The notes under the pieces: model-generated
What the model was told of the DNA's origin: nothing
Seen by the model: only the letters and a program-made list of their open reading frames with translations
Database searches by the model: none
Translations under genes and position numbers: made by a program
Shown: positions 6,515 to 64,000 of the stretch, in pieces
Position numbering within the stretch: the first letter of the stretch is position 1
How the letters are laid out: every line of letters starts with the position of its first letter
Assembly (NCBI GenBank): GCA_035221665.1
Contig: CM069145.1
Location: forward strand, 46,500,001 to 46,564,000
Direction: 5' to 3'
DNA: 64,000 nucleotides
DNA from: Okamejei kenojei
Taxonomy: Eukaryota

Positions 6515-6620
6515 GACGATATAGACAGTCTGAGCCCAGTTCTCAGGGACAACCCCCCGCTTCATGAAGAAGTAAAAGCCTGGGTTAAAGAACAAAAGGT
6601 TCAGGAAATTTTTATGCAAG
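6515..6620 (+). CDS. JMJD1C: JMJD1C exon 4-equivalent (DDIDSLSPVLRDNPPLHEEVKAWVKEQKVQEIFMQ-G)
   Basis: aaag|GAC acceptor, CAAG|gtatta donor, 106 nt, phase 0-1. Confidence 0.93.
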
Positions 6621-7902: not shown

Positions 7903-9625
7903 ATATAACCATATAACAATTACAGCACGGAAACAGGCCATCTCGGCCCTTCTAGTCCGTGCTGAACACTTGTTCTCCCCTAGTCCCATCTACCTCTGGC
8001 ATTAGTATACAAACTTAAAGCATACGGTATTAGGGGTTCAGTATTGATGTGGATAGAGAACTGGCTGGCAAAAGGAAGCAAAGAGTAGGAGTAAACGGGT
8101 CCTTTTCACAATGGCAGGCAGTAACTAGTGGGGTACCGCAGGGCTCAGTGCTGGGACCCCAGCTATTTACAATATATATTAATGATCTGGATGAGGGAAT
8201 TGAAGGCAATATCTCCAAGTTTGCGGATGACACTAAGCTGGGGGGCAGTGTTCGCTGTGAGGAGGATGCTAGGAGACTGCAAGGTGACTTGGATAGGCTG
8301 GGTGAGTGGGCAAATGTTTGGCAGATGCAGTATAATGTGGATAAATGTGAGGTTATCCACTTTGGTGGCAAAAACAGGAAAGCAGACTATTATTTAAATG
8401 GTGGCCGATTAGGAAAAGGGGAGATGCAGCGAGACCTGGGTGTCATGGTACACCAGTCATTGAAAGTAGGCATGCAGGTGCAGCAGGCAGTGAAAAAAGC
8501 GAATGGTATGTTAGCTTTCATAGCAAAAGGATTTGAGTACAGGAGCAGGGAGGTTCTACTTCAGTTGTACAGGGTCTTGGTGAGACCACCTGGAGTATTG
8601 CGTGCAGTTTTGGTCTCCAAATCTGAGGAAGGACATTATTGCCATAGAGGGAGTGCAGAGAAGGTTCACCAGACTGATTCCTGGGATGTCAGGACTGTCT
8701 TATGAAGAAAGACTGGATAGACTCGGTTTATACTCTCTGGAATTTAGGAGATTAAGAGGGGATCTTATAGAAACTTACAAAATTCTTAAGGGGTTGGACA
8801 GGCTAGATGCAGGAAGATTGTTCCCGATGTTGGGGAAGTCCAGGACAAGGGGTCACAGCTTAAGGATAAGGGGGAAATCCTTTAAGACCGAGATGAGAAA
8901 GACTTTCTTCACACAGAGAGTGGTGAGTCTCTGGAACTCTCTGCCACAGAGGGTAGTTGAGGCCAGTTCATTGGCTATATTTAAGAGTGAGTTGGATGTG
9001 GCCCTTGTGGCTAAGGGGATCAGAGGGTATGGAGAGAAGGCAGGTACGGGATACTGAGTTGGATGATCAGCCATGATCATATTGAATGGCGGTGCAGGCT
9101 CGAAGGGCTGAATGGCCTACTCCTGCACCTAATTTCTATGTTTCTATGTTTCTACCTGCACTCAGACCATAACCCTCCATTCCTTTCCCGTCCATATACC
9201 TATCCAATTTATTTTTAAATGATTAAATCGAATCTGCCTCCACCACTTCCACTGGAAGCTCATTCCACACAGCTACCACTCTCTGAGTAAAGAAGTTCCC
9301 ACTCATGTTACCCCTAAACTTCTGTCCCTTCATTCTCAAATCATGTCCTCTTGTTTGAATCTTCCCTACTCTCAATGGAAAAAGCTTATCCACGTCAACT
9401 CTGTCTATCCCTCTCATCATTTTAAAGACCTCTATCAAGTCCCCCCCTTAACCTTCTGCGCTCCGAAGAATAAAGACCTTCCATGTCAACTCTGTCTGTC
9501 CCTCTCATCATTTTAAAGACCTCTATCAAGTCCCCCCCTTAACCTTCTGCGCTCCGAAGAATAAAGACCTAACTTGTTCAACCTTTCTCTGTAACTTAGT
9601 TGCTGAAACCCAGGCAACATTCTAT
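7903..9625 (-). mobile_element. CR1-clade LINE fragment (host of the nested copy), with a 91-bp internal tandem duplication at 9389-9570
   Basis: ORF 9223 on minus strand (IEVFKMMRG..FFTQRVVAVWNELP); tail at 7903-7995 resumes after 9153. Confidence 0.85.
7996..9153 (+). mobile_element. Young 5'-truncated CR1 (HER1-like) LINE, C-terminal RT region
   Basis: ORFs 8049 and 8602 (SGVPQGSVLGP.LF.IYINDL, KFADDTK), one frameshift near 8590, (TTTCTATG)n tail, TCTACCT repeated at 7989 and 9151. Confidence 0.95.
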
Positions 9626-10407: not shown

Positions 10408-10532
10408 GTCCCTATTCCTTGAACGGTTATAGAGTACGAGTGTACAGGCAAGATTCTGCCACCCAGTGGTTCACTGGTATCATTACTTACCATGATCTTT
10501 TAAGTCGCACTATGATCGTGATGAATGACCAG
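10408..10532 (+). CDS. JMJD1C: JMJD1C exon 5-equivalent (PYSLNGYRVRVYRQDSATQWFTGIITYHDLLSRTMIVMNDQ)
   Basis: ttgcag|GT acceptor, CAG|gtaaat donor, 125 nt, phase 1-0. Confidence 0.95.
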
Positions 10533-12965: not shown

Positions 12966-13109
12966 GTGCTAGAACCACAGAATGTCGATCCTTCTATGGT
13001 ACAAATGACTTTTTTGGATGATGTTGTTCATTCTCTGCTGAAAGGTGAAAACATTGGCATCACATCAAGACGAAGGTCTCGCTCTAATCAAAACAGTCCT
13101 GCAGTTCAT
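12966..13109 (+). CDS. JMJD1C: JMJD1C exon 6-equivalent (VLEPQNVDPSMVQMTFLDDVVHSLLKGENIGITSRRRSRSNQNSPAVH)
   Basis: accag|GTG, CAT|gtgagt, 144 nt, phase 0-0; not in ORF track. Confidence 0.95.
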
Positions 13110-20630: not shown

Positions 20631-20811
20631 GGTCATTACACCCGTGCTCAAGCCAATAGCCCACGATTGGCGATGATTTCCCAGAATTTATCAGGAAAGC
20701 AGAATCAGCAGCAACAACGAATGATTCGTTCAAATAAAAGGAAAGAATCTGATTGTAGCATTCTGGAAGAAGCTAAAACGGAGGATAAATGTGAAAACCC
20801 TGTAAAAGAAG
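20631..20811 (+). CDS. JMJD1C: JMJD1C exon 7-equivalent (GHYTRAQANSPRLAM...CENPVKE)
   Basis: tctag|GGT, GAAG|gtaaaa, 181 nt, phase 0-1; HYTRAQANSPR motif. Confidence 0.92.
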
Positions 20812-20908: not shown

Positions 20909-22446
20909 AATCTTCAAAGAGCAAAGCAAAACAGTCGGCTAATAAAAGGAGAAAGCCAGTTGAAGATGAAAAGCAAGTGACTTCAGAAAGACTGAGAACA
21001 AATAATAATTCGGACACTGAAAGCAGCGAGTCTGAAAATTCTGTGAATAAAGTCATCTTAGATTCTTCGTCTGAGCAGAGTTCAGAAACTGAATTGCCAA
21101 ACAAGATAACTCTGGATGATAATAAAGATGAAAATATCTTGCAGAAAAAACAAGAATCTGGGGAAAAGATGGTAATTGATAATTCAGCTCTCTGTAATAA
21201 GATTAACAAGGAGAATGAAACTCAAAGACCTGAACTAGTTGACAATAAAATTGATCTGCATAAGCCGAAGGTTGATAGTCAACAAAGCATAAAATCCCAA
21301 GAAGTAACTGGTGGGTGCATTGTAGAAGTAATGACGACTAGTGAATCTGTGGAGCCATATCCATATAAGCTGTTAAATGTATCTGAACAGAAATCTATAA
21401 TTGGTATCAGTAATGGAACTTTATCAAACAATGTGCTTCAGGAAGCTGTTGATACCTGTTCCCTCAGTCTCGCATCGCAGAAACTGGAAGTTGACACCCT
21501 AAATCCAACACTTGCAGTTTCAAAAAAACACAAATCAGATATTCAAAAATCAGAGGTAGATGTAGATCTGAACAGAATTAACAAAAAAGTCAAATCTCAA
21601 GTTGATGAATTTTCATTTGTTAATGATTACAATAGTGGTTTGGAAAAAGAAAAAGCATCTAATGCTTCAGGACCACAATCCAATCTTCCTGTTCATGCTA
21701 TCAACAAAATCAGTAAACCAAATAAAGCGACCACTTCACCTGAAACACTGAAGCCTGAAATATCTCATCCTCGCAGCCTAGCTGCTTCAGTTTCCAGGCC
21801 AACTGCAAGGTGTAAAAATGAGTCAAGTCTCCAACCTTTGGGTGCAAGAACAATTGTGGAAACGACAAGAAGCCCTTTAATTGTTGATAAAAATGAACAT
21901 TTTACTGTATACAGGGATCCTGCTTTGGTTGGACCTGAGGCAGTAACAAAATCTTTGTCACCATATTTGCACCCGCATCATCACCCACTTCACACTTCAT
22001 CACATTCAACTTGTTTGACCACAAATAGCTCTCATTTATCTGTAAGAGTGTCATCACATAATTCTGCCGGATCTCCACAGACTTCTGGTTCTAATGATGC
22101 CCGAACTCTCAACAGTGCCCTTTCCCACTCAGTTCATTCTTCCCATCTCCTTCCTAAAGTATTACCAGGAATTCCATCAGCATCTTTGGTGTGTGGGCAT
22201 TTAGATACTGTGCATGCAAGAAATTTAAACCCTTTAGCGCTGGCACATTGTCAGCAACAGTTTTTACAGCAGCAATCATCTCAGCTCCTTGGCCGGACCC
22301 ATCCATCTACTCCTTATAATCATCTTGGACTCTATCCTGTTATCTGGCAGTATTCAAATGGCACTAATCTGTCTTCGGGTCTAAGCTTGACCTCATCTAA
22401 GTGGATTCACCCTGAAAACTCAGTGAGTGCTGAAGCTTTTAGGAGG
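20909..22446 (+). CDS. JMJD1C: JMJD1C exon 8-equivalent (large low-complexity exon)
   Basis: tatag|AA, AGG|gtatgt, 1538 nt; contains ORF 20977 with SPLIVDKNEHFTVYRDPAL and HLGLYPVIWQY. Confidence 0.92.
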
Positions 22447-23954: not shown

Positions 23955-24127
23955 AATGCATCCTGTCCGTGGCTACCTCAGCACACTTCTATGAGCTCAA
24001 CTGATGGTTTGGGATTTTTAAACCACATTCCTGTTCGTCCTGCTAGTGCTGAACTTCATCGACCCTCGAAACTGGCCCCGCCTTCTAGTCCACCTTTGTC
24101 TAAGTCAACTGGAAATCATCAGAAAGA
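23955..24127 (+). CDS. JMJD1C: JMJD1C exon 9-equivalent (NASCPWL...HIPVRPASAELHRP...NHQK)
   Basis: aacag|AAT, GA|gtaagc, 173 nt, phase 0-2. Confidence 0.92.
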
Positions 24128-30796: not shown

Positions 30797-32961
30797 AAAA
30801 ATTGACAAGAAAACTGTAATTGATTCATTCCATTCTGTTACTTCTGCTCAAATGAAGCTTGAATTTAATCATGATGGACATTCACACGGAGTGGAAAGCC
30901 AGCTGACCCAAGGATTTATGAACACCGTTCTTTGTCAGAATAAGCCAAAAAGATCACCCCCGGAACAAACTGACAGTCACATTAAGTATAAAGAAGAGAG
31001 TCGAAAGATTCTGCAGGAGAGCATTGAAGTAGCTCGTCTTGCTTCCACAGTCAAGCCAAATGAATTTGTGAAATATGGCCTTTCTAGAATTCCATCTTTG
31101 CCTACTGATTTAAAACCCCAGAACATAAAACAAGATAGAGAAACTAAGTATTATGCAATCCAACTTTATGCATCAAAGAACTCGGTACCTCATTCTGTGC
31201 CCCAGAGCAACTATTTTACTACTTTGTCAAACAGTATTATAAATGAGCCACCTCGGTTATATCTATCGAAAGATGCATGTCCTTATGCTGAGAAAACAAA
31301 TTCTTCAACCCATGCACTCCTTTCCTATAATAAGACTCTTTCCAAACCGCCTCCACTTATTAAGCATCAACCTAAAGGTGAGGGATCAGGTGGCAAACCT
31401 ACAGAACAGTTTTCCCATCAAGTGACTTCTCAGAATGCCATCTCAAATACATCTGATCACAGGGGAACGACAGAACAGTTGCCAGTTTTGCCATCAAATG
31501 CTATGAGAGGTATGCCATCTCTGCAAAGAGCCCCTATTTACCAACATCCATCTCATCACATTATGGAACGGAAGGAAGGTAATTATCGCAATCTGTCGCC
31601 ACCGACCTTAACTCCAGTACTCCCTGTCAATGCGGCTAAGCTTTCTGATTTGCAGAAACCTCCAACTTTATTGCCAGAGCCAAGGCCTGGAGTAAAAAAT
31701 TGCACAAACAATCAAACAGTCGCTTCTAATGACAGCTGGAACACTAGTACAGGATTTACTCATAAGCCTGTTTGCCATTTGAACAACAAAAACAGCGATG
31801 TAATACAAGTTTCCCCAGCTTCTGTAATTGTAAGACCATCTTCCACAGTTAAGCATGAAATTAAAGCAGAAAATCAATGTAATGCCAAGGATTCTGCACG
31901 GTTAGTAAAGCAAACAAATTTATTTGATTCAAAATTCAAAGAAGTGTGTAAAGTTATATTGCCTACCTTAAACTTGGATACTGCAAGTGGAGAACATGAG
32001 AAAAAGTTAAAGACTTTCCTTCCAGACAACAATTCGAGCTCCAGTACTATCACCAACTCTTTCAATAATAGCAGTGCTAGCCCCTCAACATCTGTAGCCA
32101 CACCAATTAACATTGTAAGTGGCGAAGAAACAAATACACCCTCATGTCAGTCGTACACCCCAGTCAATAGTATAGCAGGACAAATTATTCCCAAATCTTC
32201 AGATCGTTTCAAAACACAGGTACAGGAATGCATGATTGACACCACATCTACTGCAATTTGCTTAGCAGATGCTGCAAGAACAGGAAGCGCTGTGCAAAGT
32301 GACACAGGAATCTCAAGCACAACTGATTATTACCAGTTGAAGAAACACAAAGCAGCGCTGGCTATGGCCCACTCTGGAAGTGCTCTTCCTAATAACAATG
32401 AATCTGCAAGTCTTAAATATTATAAAAGTTCAGTATCTCTACCTCCCAAATATACTGGAACATTAGGTTTATTTTGCAAAGTAAATTCTGTCACCAATGG
32501 TCAGATTTCTCAATCCAATCAACCAGGTTTTCACACAAAACTGAAAAAAGCTTGGCTAACTAGACATTCTGAAGAAGACAAAAACACGTGTAAAATGGAA
32601 AATTCAGGAACTACAGGGAATGATGCAAAGAAGCCAATTACGATTAATTCTTCGGCTTCCACAACAAATGATGTAGACAAGAAGGCCCAACCTGATGAAG
32701 GGAAAGGTGAACAGGAAGAAAGAAAACCCAGAGGAACAAAAAGAACTTATGAATCTGATGTATCAGATGACTTCGATGTATCAGATGAATTTGAACATAA
32801 ATTGGAGCACCGTGTCAAGCGTCAACCCAAACCAACCTACAAAAAGAGACAAAATGACCTGCAAAGACGAAAAGCTGAAACTGAGAGGGAGGACGTGGAA
32901 ATAAAGCCGAATGGCACATTGTATAGGAATACAAAGGAAAATAAAAATAAACTTCAGAGCA
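30797..32961 (+). CDS. JMJD1C: JMJD1C exon 10-equivalent (largest exon)
   Basis: aatag|A, AGCA|gtaagt, 2165 nt, phase 2-1; QSNYFTTLSNS, KPPPLIKHQP, LSPPTLTP, LKKHKAALA, FHTKLKKAWLTRHSEEDK. Confidence 0.93.
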
Positions 32962-34447: not shown

Positions 34448-34649
34448 ATGGTTTACCACGCTCTGTCTTAAAAGACTGGAGGAAAGTTAAAAAGCTCAAG
34501 CAGTCTGGAGAACCTTTTCTGCAAGATGGTTCGTGCTCTGAGATAGCCTCAAATCTTCAAAAGTGCAGGGAATGTCGTATGATTCGTTATAGAAAAAATG
34601 AGGAATTCAGTCATTCAGCTGTATTCTGCAGATTCTACTACTTTCGCCG
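34448..34649 (+). CDS. JMJD1C: JMJD1C exon 11-equivalent ([26 protein letters not shown]...KCRECR...VFCRFYYFR)
   Basis: tgcag|AT, CG|gtatgt, 202 nt, phase 1-2. Confidence 0.95.
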
Positions 34650-37329: not shown

Positions 37330-37544
37330 ACTGGCATTCAGTAAGAATACAGTACTAAGGGCAGATGGGTTTTCAACTCCTGACCAGTATGATGATGAAG
37401 CAATAAATTTGTGGTTGCCGAGATATACCACAAATCTGAATTTGGACACCGAATCTTCCAAATATATATTGAAAAATGTTGGAGATAAATTTTGTCAAAT
37501 AGAGAGATCTGAGAAGACTGCTATGACATGGTTTAAAGCAGATG
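37330..37544 (+). CDS. JMJD1C: JMJD1C exon 12-equivalent (LAFSKN...DGFSTPDQYDDEA...GDKFCQ...WFKAD)
   Basis: ctcag|A, GATG|gtaata, 215 nt, phase 2-1. Confidence 0.94.
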
Positions 37545-37993: not shown

Positions 37994-38146
37994 CCAAACT
38001 AGCCTGGAAGAGAGCAGTAAAAGGAGTTCAAGAAATGTGTGATGCCTGTGAAGCCACACTGTTTAATATCCATTGGGTTTGCCAGAAATGTGGATTTGTG
38101 GTCTGTTTGGACTGTTATGAAGCAAAGGAAAGAAGGGGTTCCAAAG
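37994..38146 (+). CDS. JMJD1C: JMJD1C exon 13-equivalent, C6-type zinc finger ([29 protein letters not shown])
   Basis: ttcag|CC, AAG|gtcagt, 153 nt, phase 1-1; all Cys/His ligands present. Confidence 0.96.
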
Positions 38147-39334: not shown

Positions 39335-39427
39335 CTGTTAAAGAAATTTATGTCTGGCTGAAGTGTGTCAAAGGCCAAGTTCATGATCCAAAGAGCCTGA
39401 TGCCAACACAGATTATCCCTGGTTCTG
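39335..39427 (+). CDS. JMJD1C: JMJD1C exon 14-equivalent (VKEIYVWLKCVKGQVHDPKSLMPTQIIPGS)
   Basis: tgtag|CT, CTG|gtaagt, 93 nt, phase 1-1. Confidence 0.95.
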
Positions 39428-39797: not shown

Positions 39798-39919
39798 TTT
39801 TGACAGATATTGGAAAGGTAGTGCATTCCATCAAGGACAGTTGGAAAATTTCTGCAGGTTATTTTAAGGAACAAAATGTACAACCTTCCAAACTCTCTAC
39901 AACGAATGGAGTTTTGCAG
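39798..39919 (+). CDS. JMJD1C: JMJD1C exon 15-equivalent (LTDIGKVVHSIKDSWKISAGYFKEQ...NGVLQ)
   Basis: gttag|TT, CAG|gtatag, 122 nt, phase 1-0. Confidence 0.88.
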
Positions 39920-42637: not shown

Positions 42638-42749
42638 TGTGTCCTAAATCGCAGCACCATCAACTCAGTGGCTAAACAACTTTCGGCGTCTGAGAACCCA
42701 GAGGCTAATGACAATTCCAGCAGCCCTAGGATTCACATCATTGCGGAAG
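42638..42749 (+). CDS. JMJD1C: JMJD1C exon 16-equivalent, shortened (CVLNRSTINSVAKQLSASENPEANDNSSSPRIHIIAE)
   Basis: Long polypyrimidine tract, tgcag|TGT, AAG|gtaagt, 112 nt, phase 0-1, exactly the phase needed to join exons 15 and 17; VLN-S resembles human VLNHS. Confidence 0.8.
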
Positions 42750-45509: not shown

Positions 45510-46428
45510 GACTTGATGGAATTTTGATGGACTTACCATCAACTCCAAGAAGATTCAGGTTATCTACCAATCATCACCAACTGAGACAAATCGGAAAGAA
45601 CCATTGATTCAACTTGGTGAAACAACCCTGGAAAATGTGGATCACTTTTCATACCTTGGAAGTCACTTCTCCTCCAATGTCGAACTTGATAACAAGATAC
45701 ATCGTCTTAAGTGTGCTGGAACAACTTTTGGACGTTTTCGAACGAAAGCCTTTCATAATCATGACATCTGAACAGACATCAAAATGTTAGTGTACAAGGC
45801 AGTGGTGATTCCAACGCTCCTGTATGCATCAGAAACCTGGACATATCGACGCCATCTGAAAACACTTGAAAAGTCCCATCAACGATGGCTTCGAAGCAGC
45901 TTAAATTTCAGTTGGGAAAGAAGAACCAATGTCAGCATGCTGAATGAAGCGAAAACATCTAGCATCGAAGCCTTCGTCATCAAGAACCAACTAAGATGGG
46001 TCGGTCATGTCATTCAGATGGAAGACGAGCTTCTACCAATGCAAACCTTCTACTCCCAGCTTAAAGAAGGCAAACGTAAAAGAGGTGGACAAAGTCAGAG
46101 ATTCAAAGATGCCTTAAAAGTCAGCATGAAGAAATGTGAAATCGACATTGACAATTGGGAAACCAATGCCAAGGACAGGAAACTCTGGTGAACCATCATC
46201 GAAGAAGGAACAGCGACCTTCAAAGCCAAGTGATGCGCAGAATTAGAAGAAAAGAGAAAACAGAAAGAGAGGCAGCAACAACCAAGGCCCGGTCTGCCAT
46301 CTGGAATTATCTGTCCTGAATGTCGAAGAACTTTCAAAGCGGGATTGGACTCAAAAGCCACCTGAGAGTCCATAGAAACAACAGAACGTTGACCATCATC
46401 CTCCACCTTGAGGGATTGCCACGACGAC
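45510..46428 (+). mobile_element. RTE-clade LINE, 5'-truncated
   Basis: VYKAVVIPTLLYASETW, QLRWVGHV..M, GKRKRGGQ..RFKD.LK, C-terminal CxxC..HxxxH remnant, (ACG)n tail; 70-bp flanking duplication. Confidence 0.92.
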
Positions 46429-46824: not shown

Positions 46825-47024
46825 AAAACAAAGAATTGTTCATGTCCAAGGCAGTGAAGGTTGAATTAAACCAAATGGATAAGACAGAGAATTGCAAAAC
46901 TGCTGCCCCAAATGAAACGGGGTCAACTCTACGGGAGTTACTTACTGCAACAGCTGGCAAATTGCGATTAGGCTCAACTGATGCTGGGATTGCCTTTGCC
47001 CCAGTGTTTTCTGCAGAAACACCT
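46825..47024 (+). CDS. JMJD1C: JMJD1C exon 17-equivalent with LXXLL motif (GSTLRELLTATAGKLRLGSTDAGIAFAPV)
   Basis: tatag|AA, CCT|gtaagt, 200 nt, phase 1-0; LRELL at 46929-46943. Confidence 0.94.
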
Positions 47025-47583: not shown

Positions 47584-47865
47584 ATTGGCAGAGGTGCAAG
47601 AAGCATGCCGAATCTCTTAGATGACATAATTGCATCAGTTGTGGAAAATAAGATCCCAGCAAGTAAATCGGAGAAATTGCACGGGAAAGAAGAAGCAAAT
47701 CAACATTTGCAAAAAGAAATAAAAAACTTAAATTTAGATTCCATCAGCAAGAATCATCCTGAAGAATCACATTCTTGGCTTTGTGGGGGAAATGTACTGT
47801 GGCTCCAAGATTCTGGAAATCCAAGCAATTGTAAGATATTCAGAGAATGCTGGAGACAAGAACAG
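47584..47865 (+). CDS. JMJD1C: JMJD1C exon 18-equivalent (IGRGARSMPNLLDDIIASVVENKIP...FRECWRQEQ)
   Basis: tgtag|ATT, CAG|gtctgt, 282 nt, phase 0-0. Confidence 0.93.
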
Positions 47866-48132: not shown

Positions 48133-48304
48133 CCTGTTCTTGTGTCTGGAGTGCACACAAAACTAAATTCCAACATTTGGAAACCTGAAAGCTTCAATGA
48201 AGATTTTGCAGACCAGAAGGTTGATCTAATTAACTGCAAAGATGGCAGTATCGTATCCGGTGTGAGAATTCAAGACTTCTGGGATGGTTTTGAAGATTTA
48301 ACGA
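48133..48304 (+). CDS. JMJD1C: JMJD1C exon 19-equivalent (PVLVSGVH...DFWDGFEDLT)
   Basis: tacag|CCT, CGA|gtaagt, 172 nt, phase 0-1. Confidence 0.95.
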
Positions 48305-50711: not shown

Positions 50712-50802
50712 AGCGATTGAAGTCTAAGAATGGGGAATCTTTATTGCTGAAGCTCAATGATTGGCCTTCTGGTGAAGATTTTAAAACCATGATGCCTTCT
50801 AG
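50712..50802 (+). CDS. JMJD1C: JMJD1C exon 20-equivalent (RLKSKNGESLLLKLNDWPSGEDFKTMMPS)
   Basis: tccag|AG, TAG|gtaatt, 91 nt, phase 1-2. Confidence 0.94.
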
Positions 50803-53745: not shown

Positions 53746-53876
53746 GTATGATGACTTTATTAAAAATTTGCCACTGTCACAATATTGCAATCCTGAAGGA
53801 AATCTAAATCTGGCATCCCGGCTACCGAATTTCTTTGCTCAACCAGACCTAGGGCCGAAACTGTACAGTGTTTATG
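53746..53876 (+). CDS. JMJD1C: JMJD1C exon 21-equivalent (YDDFIKNLPL...NLASRLPNFFAQPDLGPKLYSVY)
   Basis: tttag|G, ATG|gtaagc, 131 nt, phase 2-1. Confidence 0.95.
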
Positions 53877-53965: not shown

Positions 53966-54082
53966 GGCAAACATCAGTGAAAGAATTTGGAGCTACTAAC
54001 CTCCATCTCGATGTTGCTGATGTAGTCAATGTCCTTGTCTATGTAGGAGTACCAAAAGGGAATGGAAACAATCACAGAGCAG
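53966..54082 (+). CDS. JMJD1C: JMJD1C exon 22-equivalent, JmjC HxD motif (GATNLHLDVADVVNVLVYVG)
   Basis: tacag|GG, CAG|gtaatg, 117 nt, phase 1-1; CAT CTC GAT (HLD) at 54004-54012. Confidence 0.95.
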
Positions 54083-55866: not shown

Positions 55867-56003
55867 CTATCTTGAAAAAAATTGAAGAAGAAATTGATGA
55901 AAGCACAAAGAAGAGATTGAAGAACAGTAATGAGACTCCAGGTGCTTTGTGGCATATCTTTTCAACTAAAGATACAGACAAAATAAGGGAGTTTCTGCAA
56001 AAG
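55867..56003 (+). CDS. JMJD1C: JMJD1C exon 23-equivalent (ILKKIEEE...PGALWHIFSTKDTDKIREFLQK)
   Basis: tccag|CT, AAG|gtatat, 137 nt, phase 1-0. Confidence 0.95.
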
Positions 56004-56886: not shown

Positions 56887-57060
56887 GTTAATGAGGAATT
56901 GGGTCAAGAGTCACCTGAACATGATCCACTCCTTGATCAGATCTGCTACCTGGATAAGAAAATGCGCCAGAGGCTCTGTGAAGAATGCGGAATACAATGC
57001 TGCTCCATCTTGCAGTTCTTGGGTGATACATTCTTAATACCAGCTGGGACATTGCGTCAG
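56887..57060 (+). CDS. JMJD1C: JMJD1C exon 24-equivalent (VNEELG...EHDPLLDQ...QFLGDTFLIPAGTLRQ)
   Basis: aaaag|GTT, CAG|gtaatt, 174 nt, phase 0-0. Confidence 0.94.
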
Positions 57061-58078: not shown

Positions 58079-58213
58079 ATGCAGAGTATTTACAGTTGCA
58101 TTCAAGTTTCTGGAGACTTTGTGTCACCTGAGCACATAGCACAGTCTTTCCATCTGACACATGAGCTAAGACATCAGTCAAAAGATGAGATAAACTATGA
58201 GGATAAATTACAG
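58079..58213 (+). CDS. JMJD1C: JMJD1C exon 25-equivalent (MQSIYSCIQVSGDFVSPEH...INYEDKLQ)
   Basis: tgcag|ATG, CAG|gtatga, 135 nt, phase 0-0. Confidence 0.95.
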
Positions 58214-58628: not shown

Positions 58629-60226
58629 CAGTGCCCTCCATAATATTTGGGACAAAGACCCATCATTTATTTATTTGCCTCTGTACTCCACAATTTGTGA
58701 TTTGTAATAGAATAAAATCACATGTGGTAAAAGTGCACATTGTCAGATTTTATTAAAGGCTATTTTTATACATTTTGGTTTCATCATGTAGAAATTAAAG
58801 CTGTATTTATAAATAGCCCCCCCATTTCAGGGCACCATAATGTTTGGGACACATGGCTTCACAGGTGTTTATAATTGCTCAGGTGTGTTCAAATGCCTCC
58901 TTAATGCAGGTACAAGAGAGTTCTCAGCACCTAGTCTTCCCTCCAATCTTTCCATCACCTTTGGAAACTTTTACTGCTGTTTATCAACATGAAGACTAAA
59001 GTTGTGCCAATGAAAGTCAAAGAAGCCATTATGAGACTGAGAAACAAGAATAAAACTGTTAGAGATATCAGCCAAACCTTAGGCTTACCAAAATCAACTG
59101 TTTGGAACATCATTAAGAAGAAAGAGAGCACTGGTGAGCTTACTAATCGCAAAGGGACTGGCAGGCCAAGGAAGATGATGGCAGAGGAATTCTCTCTATA
59201 ATAAAGAAAAATCCCCAAACACCTGTCCGACAGATCAGAAACACTCTTCGGGCGTCAGGTGTGGATTTGTCAATGACCACTGTCCGCAGAAGACTTCGTG
59301 AACAGAAATACAGAGGCTACACTGCAAGATGCAAACCACGGGTTAGCCGCAAAAATAGGATGGCCAGGTTAGTTTGCCAAGAAGAACTTAAAAGAGCAAC
59401 CACACTTCTGGAAAAAGATCTTGTAAAAGGATGAGATGAAGATTAACTTATATCAGAGTGATGGCATGAGCAAAGTATGGAGGAGAGAAGGAACTGCCCA
59501 AGATCCAAAGCATACTACCTCATTTGCAGACCACCTCATCTGTGAAACACGGTGGTGGGAGTGTTATGGCCTGGGCATGTACGGCTGCTGAAGGTACTGG
59601 CTCACTTATCTTCATTGATGATACAACAGCTGATGGTAGTAGCATAATGAATTCTGATGTGTATTTGCACAAGTTCAAACAAATGCCTCCAAACTCATTG
59701 ACTGGCGGTTCATTCTACAGCAAGACAATGATCCCAAACATACTGCTAAAGCAACAAAGGAGTTTTTCAAAGCTAAAAAATTGTCAATTCTTGAGTGGCC
59801 GTCAATCATTCGATCTGAACCAAATTGAGCGTGCCTTTTATATGCTGATGAGAAAACTGAAGCATAAGGTAAAGATGGCTGCAATACAGACCTGGCAGAG
59901 CATCACCAGAGAAGACAACCAGCAATTGGTGATGTCCATGAATCGCAGACTTCAAACAGTCATTGCATGCAAAGGATATGCAACAAAATACTAAACGTGA
60001 CATTGCTGTGTCCCAATCATTATGGTGCCCTGAAATGCGGGGGACTATGTATAAACACTTCTGTCATTTCTACATGATGAAATCAAAATATATAAAAATG
60101 GCCTTTATTAAAATCTGACAATGTGCACTTTAACCACATGTGATTTTTTTTCTATTACAAATTGTGCAGTACAGAGGGAAATAAATAAATGATGGGTCTT
60201 TGTCCGAAACATTATGGAGGGCACTG
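58629..60226 (+). mobile_element. Tc1/mariner DNA transposon copy 3 (defective)
   Basis: TA|CAGTGCCCTCCATAAT...ATTATGGAGGGCACTG|TA, 1598 bp; transposase remnants in ORFs 58989 and 59524. Confidence 0.95.
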
Positions 60227-61717: not shown

Positions 61718-61801
61718 ATAAAAAATATAATTTACCATTCTGTTAAAGATGCTGTGGGAACTCTGAGACTGCATGAAGAAAATGCACATCAAAAGGTTTA
61801 G
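61718..61801 (+). CDS. JMJD1C: JMJD1C terminal coding exon (IKNIIYHSVKDAVGTLRLHEENAHQKV*)
   Basis: tgcag|ATA, TAG stop ending at 61801. Confidence 0.94.
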   Translation: MKNIIYHSVKDAVGTLRLHEENAHQKV

Positions 61802-62569: not shown

Positions 62570-63977
62570 AATATAATAATAATTATATATTTTATTGTCA
62601 TTACACATAAGTGCAACGAGATTTGGTTTGAAACTTCCATCCGATGTCATAACTTAATCGACAAATAAAATTTAGGTTTAAATACCCTGAGAACAAGGTT
62701 TGTAAAAATGAACATTAGACCAGTAAAATCAACACAGACTAAAGTGCGAGGCCGGGGGAGACAGTCCATGGGGGTGGGGGGGGGTATTCAGCAGGGCCAG
62801 TTTAAAGCCGCTATAGCTCTGGGAATGAAGCTGTTCCTGAGTCTGGTGGTGCGGGCGTAGAAGGCCTTGTAACGTCTGCCGGAAGAGAGTAGTTCGAACA
62901 GTCCATTACAAGGGTGAGAGGAGTCTTTATGTATGCTAACAGCCTTCCTGAGGCACCGTGTGTGGTAGATGCCCTCCAAGGCTGGTATCGGTGTCCCAAC
63001 AGCGCGCTGAAGAGCTCTCCTCTCCGCCTCCGTGCAGCTGAGATACCACACAGAGATGCCATATGTTAGTATGCTCTCTGTGGTGCAGTGGTAGAAGGTC
63101 CTCAGCAGCTGTTGGGGCAGACCAGTCCATTTCAATGTTCTTAGGAAGAACAGTCGTTGCTGTGCCTTTTTGACCAGCGCAGCGGTGTTGGTGGACCATG
63201 TGAGGTCCTCTGAGATGTGAGTGCCCAGAAACTTGAAGCTGGACACACTCTCCACACTGTCTCCGTAGATGGAGATTGTGGCGTATTCCCCATTCTGTGA
63301 CCTCCTGAAGTCGATAATCAGCCCCTTGGTCTTGGAGGTGTTTAGCGACAAGTTGTTCCGTGAGCACCAGTCTGCCAGGTTCTGCACCTCCGCTCTATAG
63401 TTTGTTTCATCACCGTTGGTGATCAGCCCGATTACCGTTGTGTCGTCTGCAAACTTGACAATGGTGTTGTTGTCAAATGTAGGGACACAGTCGTGAGTGA
63501 AGAGGGAGTAGAGCATGGGGCTCAGTACACAGTCCTGCGGTGTGCCGGTGCTCAGGGTGATAGTGGAGGACAGGTGCGGCCCCAGTCTCACTGCCTGCGG
63601 TCGCTCCGTCAGAAAGTTCAGAATCCAACCGCATATCAGTGAGCTGAGGCCTAGCTGGTGGAGTTTGGTGGTTAGCTTGGTGAGGATGACCGTATTGAAG
63701 GCAGAGCTATGGTCAATGAAGAGCATCCTCACGTAGGTGCCCTGTCTTTCCAGGTGGGTCAGGACAGTGTGAAGAGCCACAGAGATGGCATCCTCTGTGG
63801 ATCTATTTGCCCTGTATGCAAATTGATGAGAGTCCAATGATGCAGGGATGCTGGATTTGATGTGGGAGAGGACCAGCCTTTCAAAGCACTTCATTGGTAT
63901 TGGAGTTAGGGCAACCGGGCGGTAGTCATTCAGGTTGGTGACTTTAGACTTTTTTGGCACCGGCACTATGGCAGCTG
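62570..63977 (-). mobile_element. Rex1/Babar-clade LINE, 5'-truncated, with uninterrupted 392-aa RT frame (62788-63966)
   Basis: [49 protein letters not shown]; TGACAATAAA and AT-rich tail. Confidence 0.93.
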
Positions 63978-64000
63978 TGTTTAATTAATTGGGCAGTGTG

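Follow-up and report, generated by a model that had tools for sequence, protein, structure and literature searches.

The window analysed here, a 64,000-nucleotide stretch of the Okamejei kenojei genome (contig CM069145.1, positions 46,500,001 to 46,564,000 of the forward strand), carries all but the first part of the gene for JMJD1C, a member of the KDM3 family. A scripted model guided by the JMJD1C protein of Amblyraja radiata (P0267) has 23 coding exons on the plus strand between 6515 and 61801; their 6852 nt encode 2283 residues, 2213 of which are identical to the guide, and the frame is open throughout, with GT-AG boundaries at every intron and a single terminal stop. The gene begins upstream of the window, and approximately 110-150 N-terminal residues fall outside it. 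An N-terminal Tudor/PWWP region, a zinc finger, an LxxLL motif and, at the C terminus, a JmjC domain were all found, by Pfam on the 96.9%-identical P0267 protein (with a JmjC score above the cut-off) and by motif reading in the window. The initial annotation had described 23 exons in frame with clean splice sites, as well as an intact zinc finger and LXXLL motif; both descriptions are borne out, the cysteines and the LxxLL being legible in the window model. Frames of decayed LINE-type reverse transcriptases and fragments of Tc1/mariner-like transposases, recognized by eye, occur in the introns and downstream of JMJD1C. The features of the window are:

6515-61801, plus strand: JMJD1C coding span, 23 exons, 2283 residues (guided gene model)
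6515-6620, 10408-10532, 12966-13109, 20631-20811, 20909-22446, 23955-24127, plus strand: coding exons 1-6 in the window
30797-32961, 34448-34649, 37330-37544, 37994-38146, 39335-39427, 39798-39919, plus strand: coding exons 7-12
42638-42749, 46825-47024, 47584-47865, 48133-48304, 50712-50802, 53746-53876, plus strand: coding exons 13-18
53966-54082, 55867-56003, 56887-57060, 58079-58213, 61718-61801, plus strand: coding exons 19-23
38038-38115, plus strand: Cys-rich zinc-finger motif, intact (read in the window model)
46929-46943, plus strand: LxxLL motif, intact (read in the window model)
54004-54006, plus strand: His (CAT) retained as the first iron ligand; H2336 in human (alignment and window reading)
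54010-54012, plus strand: second iron ligand, Asp (GAT), kept (window reading)
56887-57060, plus strand: Arg-bearing exon, 21st coding exon in the window (gene model; spliced on both sides in RNA contigs)
56944-56946, plus strand: Cys where KDM3A/B and tetrapod JMJD1C have Trp (alignment; 16/16 cartilaginous-fish rows)
57055-57057, plus strand: CGT, coding for Arg where human His2466 is the distal Fe(II) ligand (sequence, structure alignment and run contigs)
58079-58213, plus strand: next coding exon, containing the final barrel strand (gene model, RNA contigs and AlphaFold model)
58103-58105, plus strand: Gln (CAA) ten residues past the distal ligand, Lys in KDM3A/B and most invertebrate KDM3 proteins
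58112-58114, plus strand: Gly (GGA) for Glu, private to the window species, 1/16 (alignment; confirmed by X13/X16 RNA contigs)
62788-63984 (minus strand), 58935-59994, 8034-9054 and 45517-46191: repeat fragments recognized by eye, ordinary repeats

The exon at 56887-57060, which we take to be exon 24 on the assumption that the JMJD1C gene has 26 exons, closes with CCA GCT GGG ACA TTG CGT CAG, followed by a GT donor, and its translation (...QFLGDTFLIPAGTLRQ) has FLIPAGTLRQ as its C-terminal residues. The closest solved structures are those of human JMJD1C (5FZO, 2YPD and 9GDK; E ~1e-15 to 2e-14), together with KDM3B, and the window arginine lies opposite the His of PAGALHQ, which is His311 of human JMJD1C chains 2YPD/5FZO. 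In the same structure alignment the His of the HxE motif is chain residue 181; because PMC13149330 numbers the human HxE residues H2336/E2338, so that chain His181 is H2336, chain His311 corresponds to H2466. The claims that the third Fe(II) ligand of the JmjC domain is Arg rather than His, and that the equivalent human residue is H2466, are thus supported by the window codon and by the human chain numbering, respectively. As outlined in PMC4233403, the iron site of the JmjC family is the HxD/E...H triad; the skate protein retains its first pair, read as HLD at 54004-54012, and lacks the distal His of strand VII.

Eight of the 24 listed sequencing runs were compared with the exon, which is read in X13, X16, X11, X17, X19 and X20 and lies outside the coverage of the X6 contigs; contigs were taken as RNA on the basis of intron skipping, the RNA label being otherwise a program's guess. 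Those of X13 and X16, samples other than the possible source of the assembly, lack the introns on either side of the exon and match it everywhere except at 56925, where the difference is synonymous; those of X17, X19 and X20 span the whole exon and continue into neighbouring exons, with 3, 4 and 3 other letters, none of them in the codon; and the X11 contig is unspliced over the stretch, with at least five of its seven differences located outside the codon. Position 57056, at which an RNA check had been proposed, accordingly lies in a CGT and not a CAT codon in contigs from six runs, of which five are spliced, and since the intron-skipping contigs of other samples share the codon, it is not a sequencing error. 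PAGTLRQ is also present in two assembled proteins (P0002 and P0085). The exon has four matches in the genome, namely itself, PAGAPHQ on C11 and C1, and PTATSYQ on C38, so that no His-bearing second JMJD1C copy exists among the genome candidates scored; an alternative exon restoring the His, which the initial annotation had raised as a possibility, was likewise not found. Run contigs and the genome candidates scored together rule out sequencing error, an alternative exon and a second His-bearing copy.

Phylogeny and synteny identify the window gene as a true JMJD1C orthologue. In a tree of 51 C-terminal regions (quick maximum-likelihood search, no bootstrap; P0261 left out as a duplicate species), the window and 15 cartilaginous-fish JMJD1C rows form a clade (SH-aLRT 99) whose sister group comprises 14 bony JMJD1C rows (SH-aLRT 99 for the two together) and which is separate from the KDM3A, KDM3B and hairless-like rows. 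NRBF2_MIT exons lie on the opposite strand 11-20 kb beyond the downstream end of the window (C15:46,575,194-46,583,653), and a REEP-family exon is found upstream (C15:46,362,982), in what we take to be the human gene order around JMJD1C (REEP-JMJD1C-NRBF2). Each of the four KDM3 loci has a REEP-family exon within ~0.14-0.22 Mb, a pattern that agrees with the presumed pairing of human REEP1-4 with KDM3A, KDM3B, JMJD1C and HR. The KDM3A-like and KDM3B-like genes of the same genome (C11 and C1) keep the full triad, HLD...H. The fourth KDM3-family gene (L004, C38:11947361-11947507, minus strand) has Tyr at the distal ligand; its resemblance to a Pristiophorus protein (P0197) that groups in the tree with hairless-named proteins of coelacanth and turtle, and the presence of a REEP-family exon at a distance of 0.15 Mb, make it the probable hairless ohnologue of the skate. 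According to a 2011 study, hairless was not found outside mammals (PMC3216519).

The arginine extends well beyond the window species. Callorhinchus milii JMJD1C (P0086), the top match of a representative protein search, reads PAGALRQ, and a query with its JmjC region retrieved 1312 proteins, the best 120 of which were tallied (16 cartilaginous, 104 bony). Among these best 120 of 1312, Arg occupies the distal ligand position in all 16 cartilaginous-fish JMJD1C proteins, which represent 15 species (a chimaera, the only one of its group, Heterodontus, Heptranchias, Pristiophorus, Mustelus, Rhincodon, Chiloscyllium (twice), Cetorhinus, Scyliorhinus, Stegostoma, Pristis, Amblyraja, Rhinoraja, Narcine and Hypanus), and His in 103 of the 104 bony-vertebrate proteins, the sole exception being a Gln in Triplophysa rosa (P0284). 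The bony set is the most query-like part of the matches, rich in birds and teleosts and with no mammal, the human protein being represented by the PDB alignments. No Arg is found in the 189 other homologues with a readable motif, 178 of which have His. A change limited to one species or to skates, which the alignment of orthologues proposed in the initial annotation was suited to reveal, is ruled out by the chimaera and shark proteins. Since Arg is present in the chimaera as well as in sharks, skates and rays, the substitution predates the split between chimaeras and elasmobranchs, approximately 400 million years ago, and its simplest history, judging from these alignments, would be a single His-to-Arg change on the cartilaginous-fish stem.

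Other departures from the distal His were noted within the family. As an isolated case, like that of Triplophysa, a teleost-like JMJD1C (P0041) has Phe at this position; the long-form KDM3 proteins of the lamprey Petromyzon marinus (P0159) and of what is probably another jawless fish (P0184) have Tyr and Phe, respectively, and are both devoid of the Lys at +10, and a hagfish protein (P0134) keeps the full set of distal His and Lys at +10. On the JMJD1C/hairless side of the KDM3 family, ligands seem to have been lost repeatedly, with long branches that make the placement unsure.

Several neighbouring positions that had been quoted as also differing were traced in the alignment. The W to C, V to M and N to S changes are shared by 16, 15 and 14 of the 16 cartilaginous-fish rows, respectively, but the E to G change is private to the window species (1/16). 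The exons at 53966-54082 and 53746-53876 hold further changes that set the species apart from other skates, with Phe for His and Ala for Thr immediately ahead of HLD, and Ala for Val; of the private changes, the Glu to Gly at 58112-58114 alone was compared with RNA contigs. The first ligand pair also distinguishes the two lineages: among the best 120 of 1312 proteins, its second residue is Asp in 16/16 cartilaginous and Glu in 104/104 bony JMJD1C. A Tyr that matches KDM3B Y1541 is kept in 13 of 16 cartilaginous-fish proteins and lost in bony JMJD1C. Within the best 120, the residue three before the first His is Ala in 40 of the 104 bony proteins, and the Thr found there in cartilaginous fishes is replaced by Ile in 3 of 16. 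The lineages have hence diverged differently, bony vertebrates exchanging Asp for Glu and keeping the His, and cartilaginous fishes keeping the Asp and losing the distal His.

Ten residues past the distal ligand, Gln is found in 120/120 jawed-vertebrate JMJD1C proteins (best 120 of 1312), whereas His is accompanied by Lys at +10 in 145 of the 189 other homologues. We take this KDM3 Lys to be the probable 2-oxoglutarate anchor. The C5 carboxylate of 2-oxoglutarate is normally held by a basic residue (PMC4233403); a statement that the KDM3 Lys at +10 does so was not found in the open literature. Two reviews and Brauchle et al. call the cofactor residues of human JMJD1C fully conserved, which speaks against this Lys as the 2-oxoglutarate anchor; PMC13149330 describes the JMJD1C active-site features as atypical. 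The Gln at +10 is a candidate reason why human JMJD1C activity is hard to show.

An AlphaFold model of the closely related protein P0002 (59 sequences; mean pLDDT 89.1, pTM 0.88) has eight core strands, Arg270 falling within strand 269-274 and Gln280 within the final one, 277-285. The double-stranded beta-helix barrel is thus predicted to stay folded, with Arg occupying the place of the His at the beginning of strand VII.

Taken together, these features suggest, with a probability of roughly 0.7, that JMJD1C of cartilaginous fishes is a class-wide pseudo-enzyme, likely without normal Fe(II)/2OG catalysis, that serves as a scaffold or binding module. Arg not being an iron ligand, the HxD...H triad is broken, and a fold that is kept, conservation of the rest of the protein and the presence of two complete paralogs make this the likeliest reading of a gene that combines the natural loss of an iron ligand with an intact, expressed and conserved state. 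The arginine would be unable to ligate iron, and its long charged side chain would crowd the metal site of a pocket from which the Lys that probably anchored 2-oxoglutarate had already gone (Gln in jawed-vertebrate JMJD1C); H3K9 demethylation would be left to KDM3A/B, and JMJD1C may rely for its action on the Tudor/PWWP region, the disordered middle, the zinc finger, the LxxLL motif and a JmjC domain that is folded yet inactive. Several observations run against a pseudo-enzyme, the reduced activity of AspH H725A and the weak activity reported for mammalian JMJD1C (both taken up below) among them. His and Asp of the first pair are kept in 16/16 proteins, which fits a residual metal site or a structural role alike, and ancestral KDM3A/B-type residues that bony JMJD1C has lost are still present (Asp in 16/16, Tyr in 13/16). 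A bolder version, which we put forward tentatively, is that Arg stands in for the iron: its positive charge would form a pair with the invariant Asp and so fix the pocket in a metal-free state able to bind methylated lysine without modifying it, JMJD1C having been non-catalytic since the jawed-vertebrate ancestor. If so, the change from Lys to Gln (120/120) would have come first, sharks would merely have completed the loss, and catalysis would be dispensable for the essential, conserved function of the human protein as well.

Alternatively, the protein might be an altered oxygenase that holds iron on His and Asp alone and uses the Arg to bind the carboxylate of a co-substrate in place of the lost Lys, the co-substrate perhaps being other than 2-oxoglutarate. 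The invariance of His and Asp among the 16 cartilaginous-fish proteins of the best 120 of 1312 agrees with such activity, as do the unusual co-substrate needs suggested for JMJD1C (PMC13149330), the requirement of Epe1 for its own replacement Tyr (PMC7192584) and the behaviour of AspH, variants of which remain active with one protein ligand: H725A, devoid of one of the two His ligands, keeps reduced activity, and the enzyme is partly active without either His (PMC8252765). The AspH mutant, however, carried Ala, which leaves room for water, whereas Arg would be bulky and positive beside the metal. Moreover, a second conserved residue changed from Trp to Cys on the same stem, Ile replaces the Thr located three positions ahead of the first His in 3 of the 16 proteins, and human JMJD1C, with its triad complete, is already hard to show active, so that we consider an altered oxygenase unlikely.

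The JmjC core of JMJD1C evolves faster than that of KDM3A in both cartilaginous and bony lineages, with p-distances over the same split of 0.39-0.44 (cartilaginous versus bony JMJD1C, three pairs) versus 0.16 (KDM3A of skate versus bat, one pair). This much faster divergence, and the private changes of the window species near the pocket, would suit a vestige, in which JmjC function was lost first and Arg drifted into a slowly decaying domain of an otherwise functional protein. The invariance of the Arg would be unexceptional in that case too: 70 of 165 ungapped columns of the core (42%) are invariant, and so are 3 of 8 Arg-majority core columns, which makes the constancy of Arg weak evidence and leaves special selection on the residue itself weakly supported. 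Mean p-distances between the chimaera and elasmobranchs, on the other hand, are 0.148 for the zinc finger, 0.304 for the JmjC core and 0.407 for the disordered region, as compared with 0.129, 0.276 and 0.477 between lobe-finned and ray-finned vertebrates; the core-to-finger ratio is ~2.1 in both groups, indicating no extra relaxation in the Arg lineage, and relaxed JmjC constraint in cartilaginous fishes has no sign in these protein distances. The core is also better conserved than the disordered region (42% versus 15-29% invariant columns, with 37 of 240 in a loose part of the latter), the window contains no stop or frameshift, the motif is readable in all 16 cartilaginous-fish proteins, and differences among runs are mostly synonymous (5 synonymous variable sites on 36.8 and 2 non-synonymous on 137.2 in the exon, small numbers that come from run contigs whose differences were fully or mostly listed). 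A decaying domain is for these reasons improbable. An artefact, whether an error of sequencing, a pseudogene or divergent paralog, or a minor exon whose His-bearing alternative lies elsewhere, has next to no chance of accounting for a codon found in contigs from six runs, of which five are spliced, and for an Arg at the same position in 15 named species, in a genome with just four KDM3-family matches, the others of which are KDM3A-like, KDM3B-like and hairless-like.

The proposal that the protein is kept as a catalytically dead or altered scaffold therefore holds as regards replacement of the distal His in an intact, spliced and constrained orthologue, loss of catalysis remaining a prediction. 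Its supposed bearing on the dispute over JMJD1C demethylase activity is indirect, as 103 of 104 bony proteins keep the His (best 120 of 1312); because bony vertebrates keep the triad, nothing is proven about inactivity of human JMJD1C. According to the respective papers, the human protein has no H3K9 activity (PMC3623819, PMC13149330), mammalian JMJD1C has weak, extract-stimulated activity (PMC4617977), reviews report weak, cofactor-stimulated or cellular demethylase activity (PMC11208531, PMC13632499), and the protein has a non-catalytic N-terminal role in leukaemia cells, with some lines sensitive to JmjC disruption (PMC12120245). Mixed as they are, these data point the same way as the pseudo-enzyme reading. 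As far as comparative sequence goes, one whole vertebrate class shows that JMJD1C can be retained for some 400 million years without its triad, one iron ligand being absent, and thus provides a natural test of the need for the disputed human enzyme activity. The class-wide Arg is visible in public annotations that are still labelled probable demethylases, and for cartilaginous-fish JMJD1C the database label 'probable histone demethylase' is doubtful. A natural and well-folded variant (human H2466R or the skate domain) would separate catalytic from scaffold function more cleanly than alanine mutants, which may also disturb partner binding.

Among known systems, bony-vertebrate JMJD1C/KDM3C (human Q15652; 2YPD, 5FZO and 9GDK) is the orthologue, with the same domain order and the same Gln at +10, but it keeps HxE...H (103/104), whereas the cartilaginous-fish protein has HxD...R (16/16; best 120 of 1312) and Cys at a position where tetrapod JMJD1C, like KDM3A/B, has Trp. 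The active H3K9me1/2 demethylases KDM3A and KDM3B share family, fold and HLD motif with skate JMJD1C but keep the distal His, also in this genome, and the Lys at +10 (seen in Rhinoraja KDM3A). Hairless (HR/KDM3D) and the long-form KDM3 proteins of jawless fishes belong to the family and, like skate JMJD1C, have lost ligands, the distal residue being Tyr in lamprey P0159 and in all four hairless-like rows and Phe in P0184; in these proteins, however, the first ligand pair, which skate JMJD1C keeps, is mostly lost or altered too, and 48-69% of catalytic-class invariant columns are kept, versus 74-83% in cartilaginous-fish JMJD1C. JmjC proteins with lost ligands are thus already known, Epe1 among them, and PHF2 is likewise a kept JmjC protein with natural loss of the distal His. 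The class-wide JMJD1C case was not found in open papers, subscription journals falling largely outside this search, and could be visible in a supplementary alignment of a JmjC survey. By analogy, the closest precedent is fission yeast Epe1, in which, according to PMC7192584, the same His is naturally replaced by a Tyr that is itself required, the protein being kept with non-enzymatic functions. Epe1 differs in that its Tyr can still ligate metal and in belonging to another JmjC subfamily, whereas the replacement in cartilaginous-fish JMJD1C is an Arg, fixed in a whole class.
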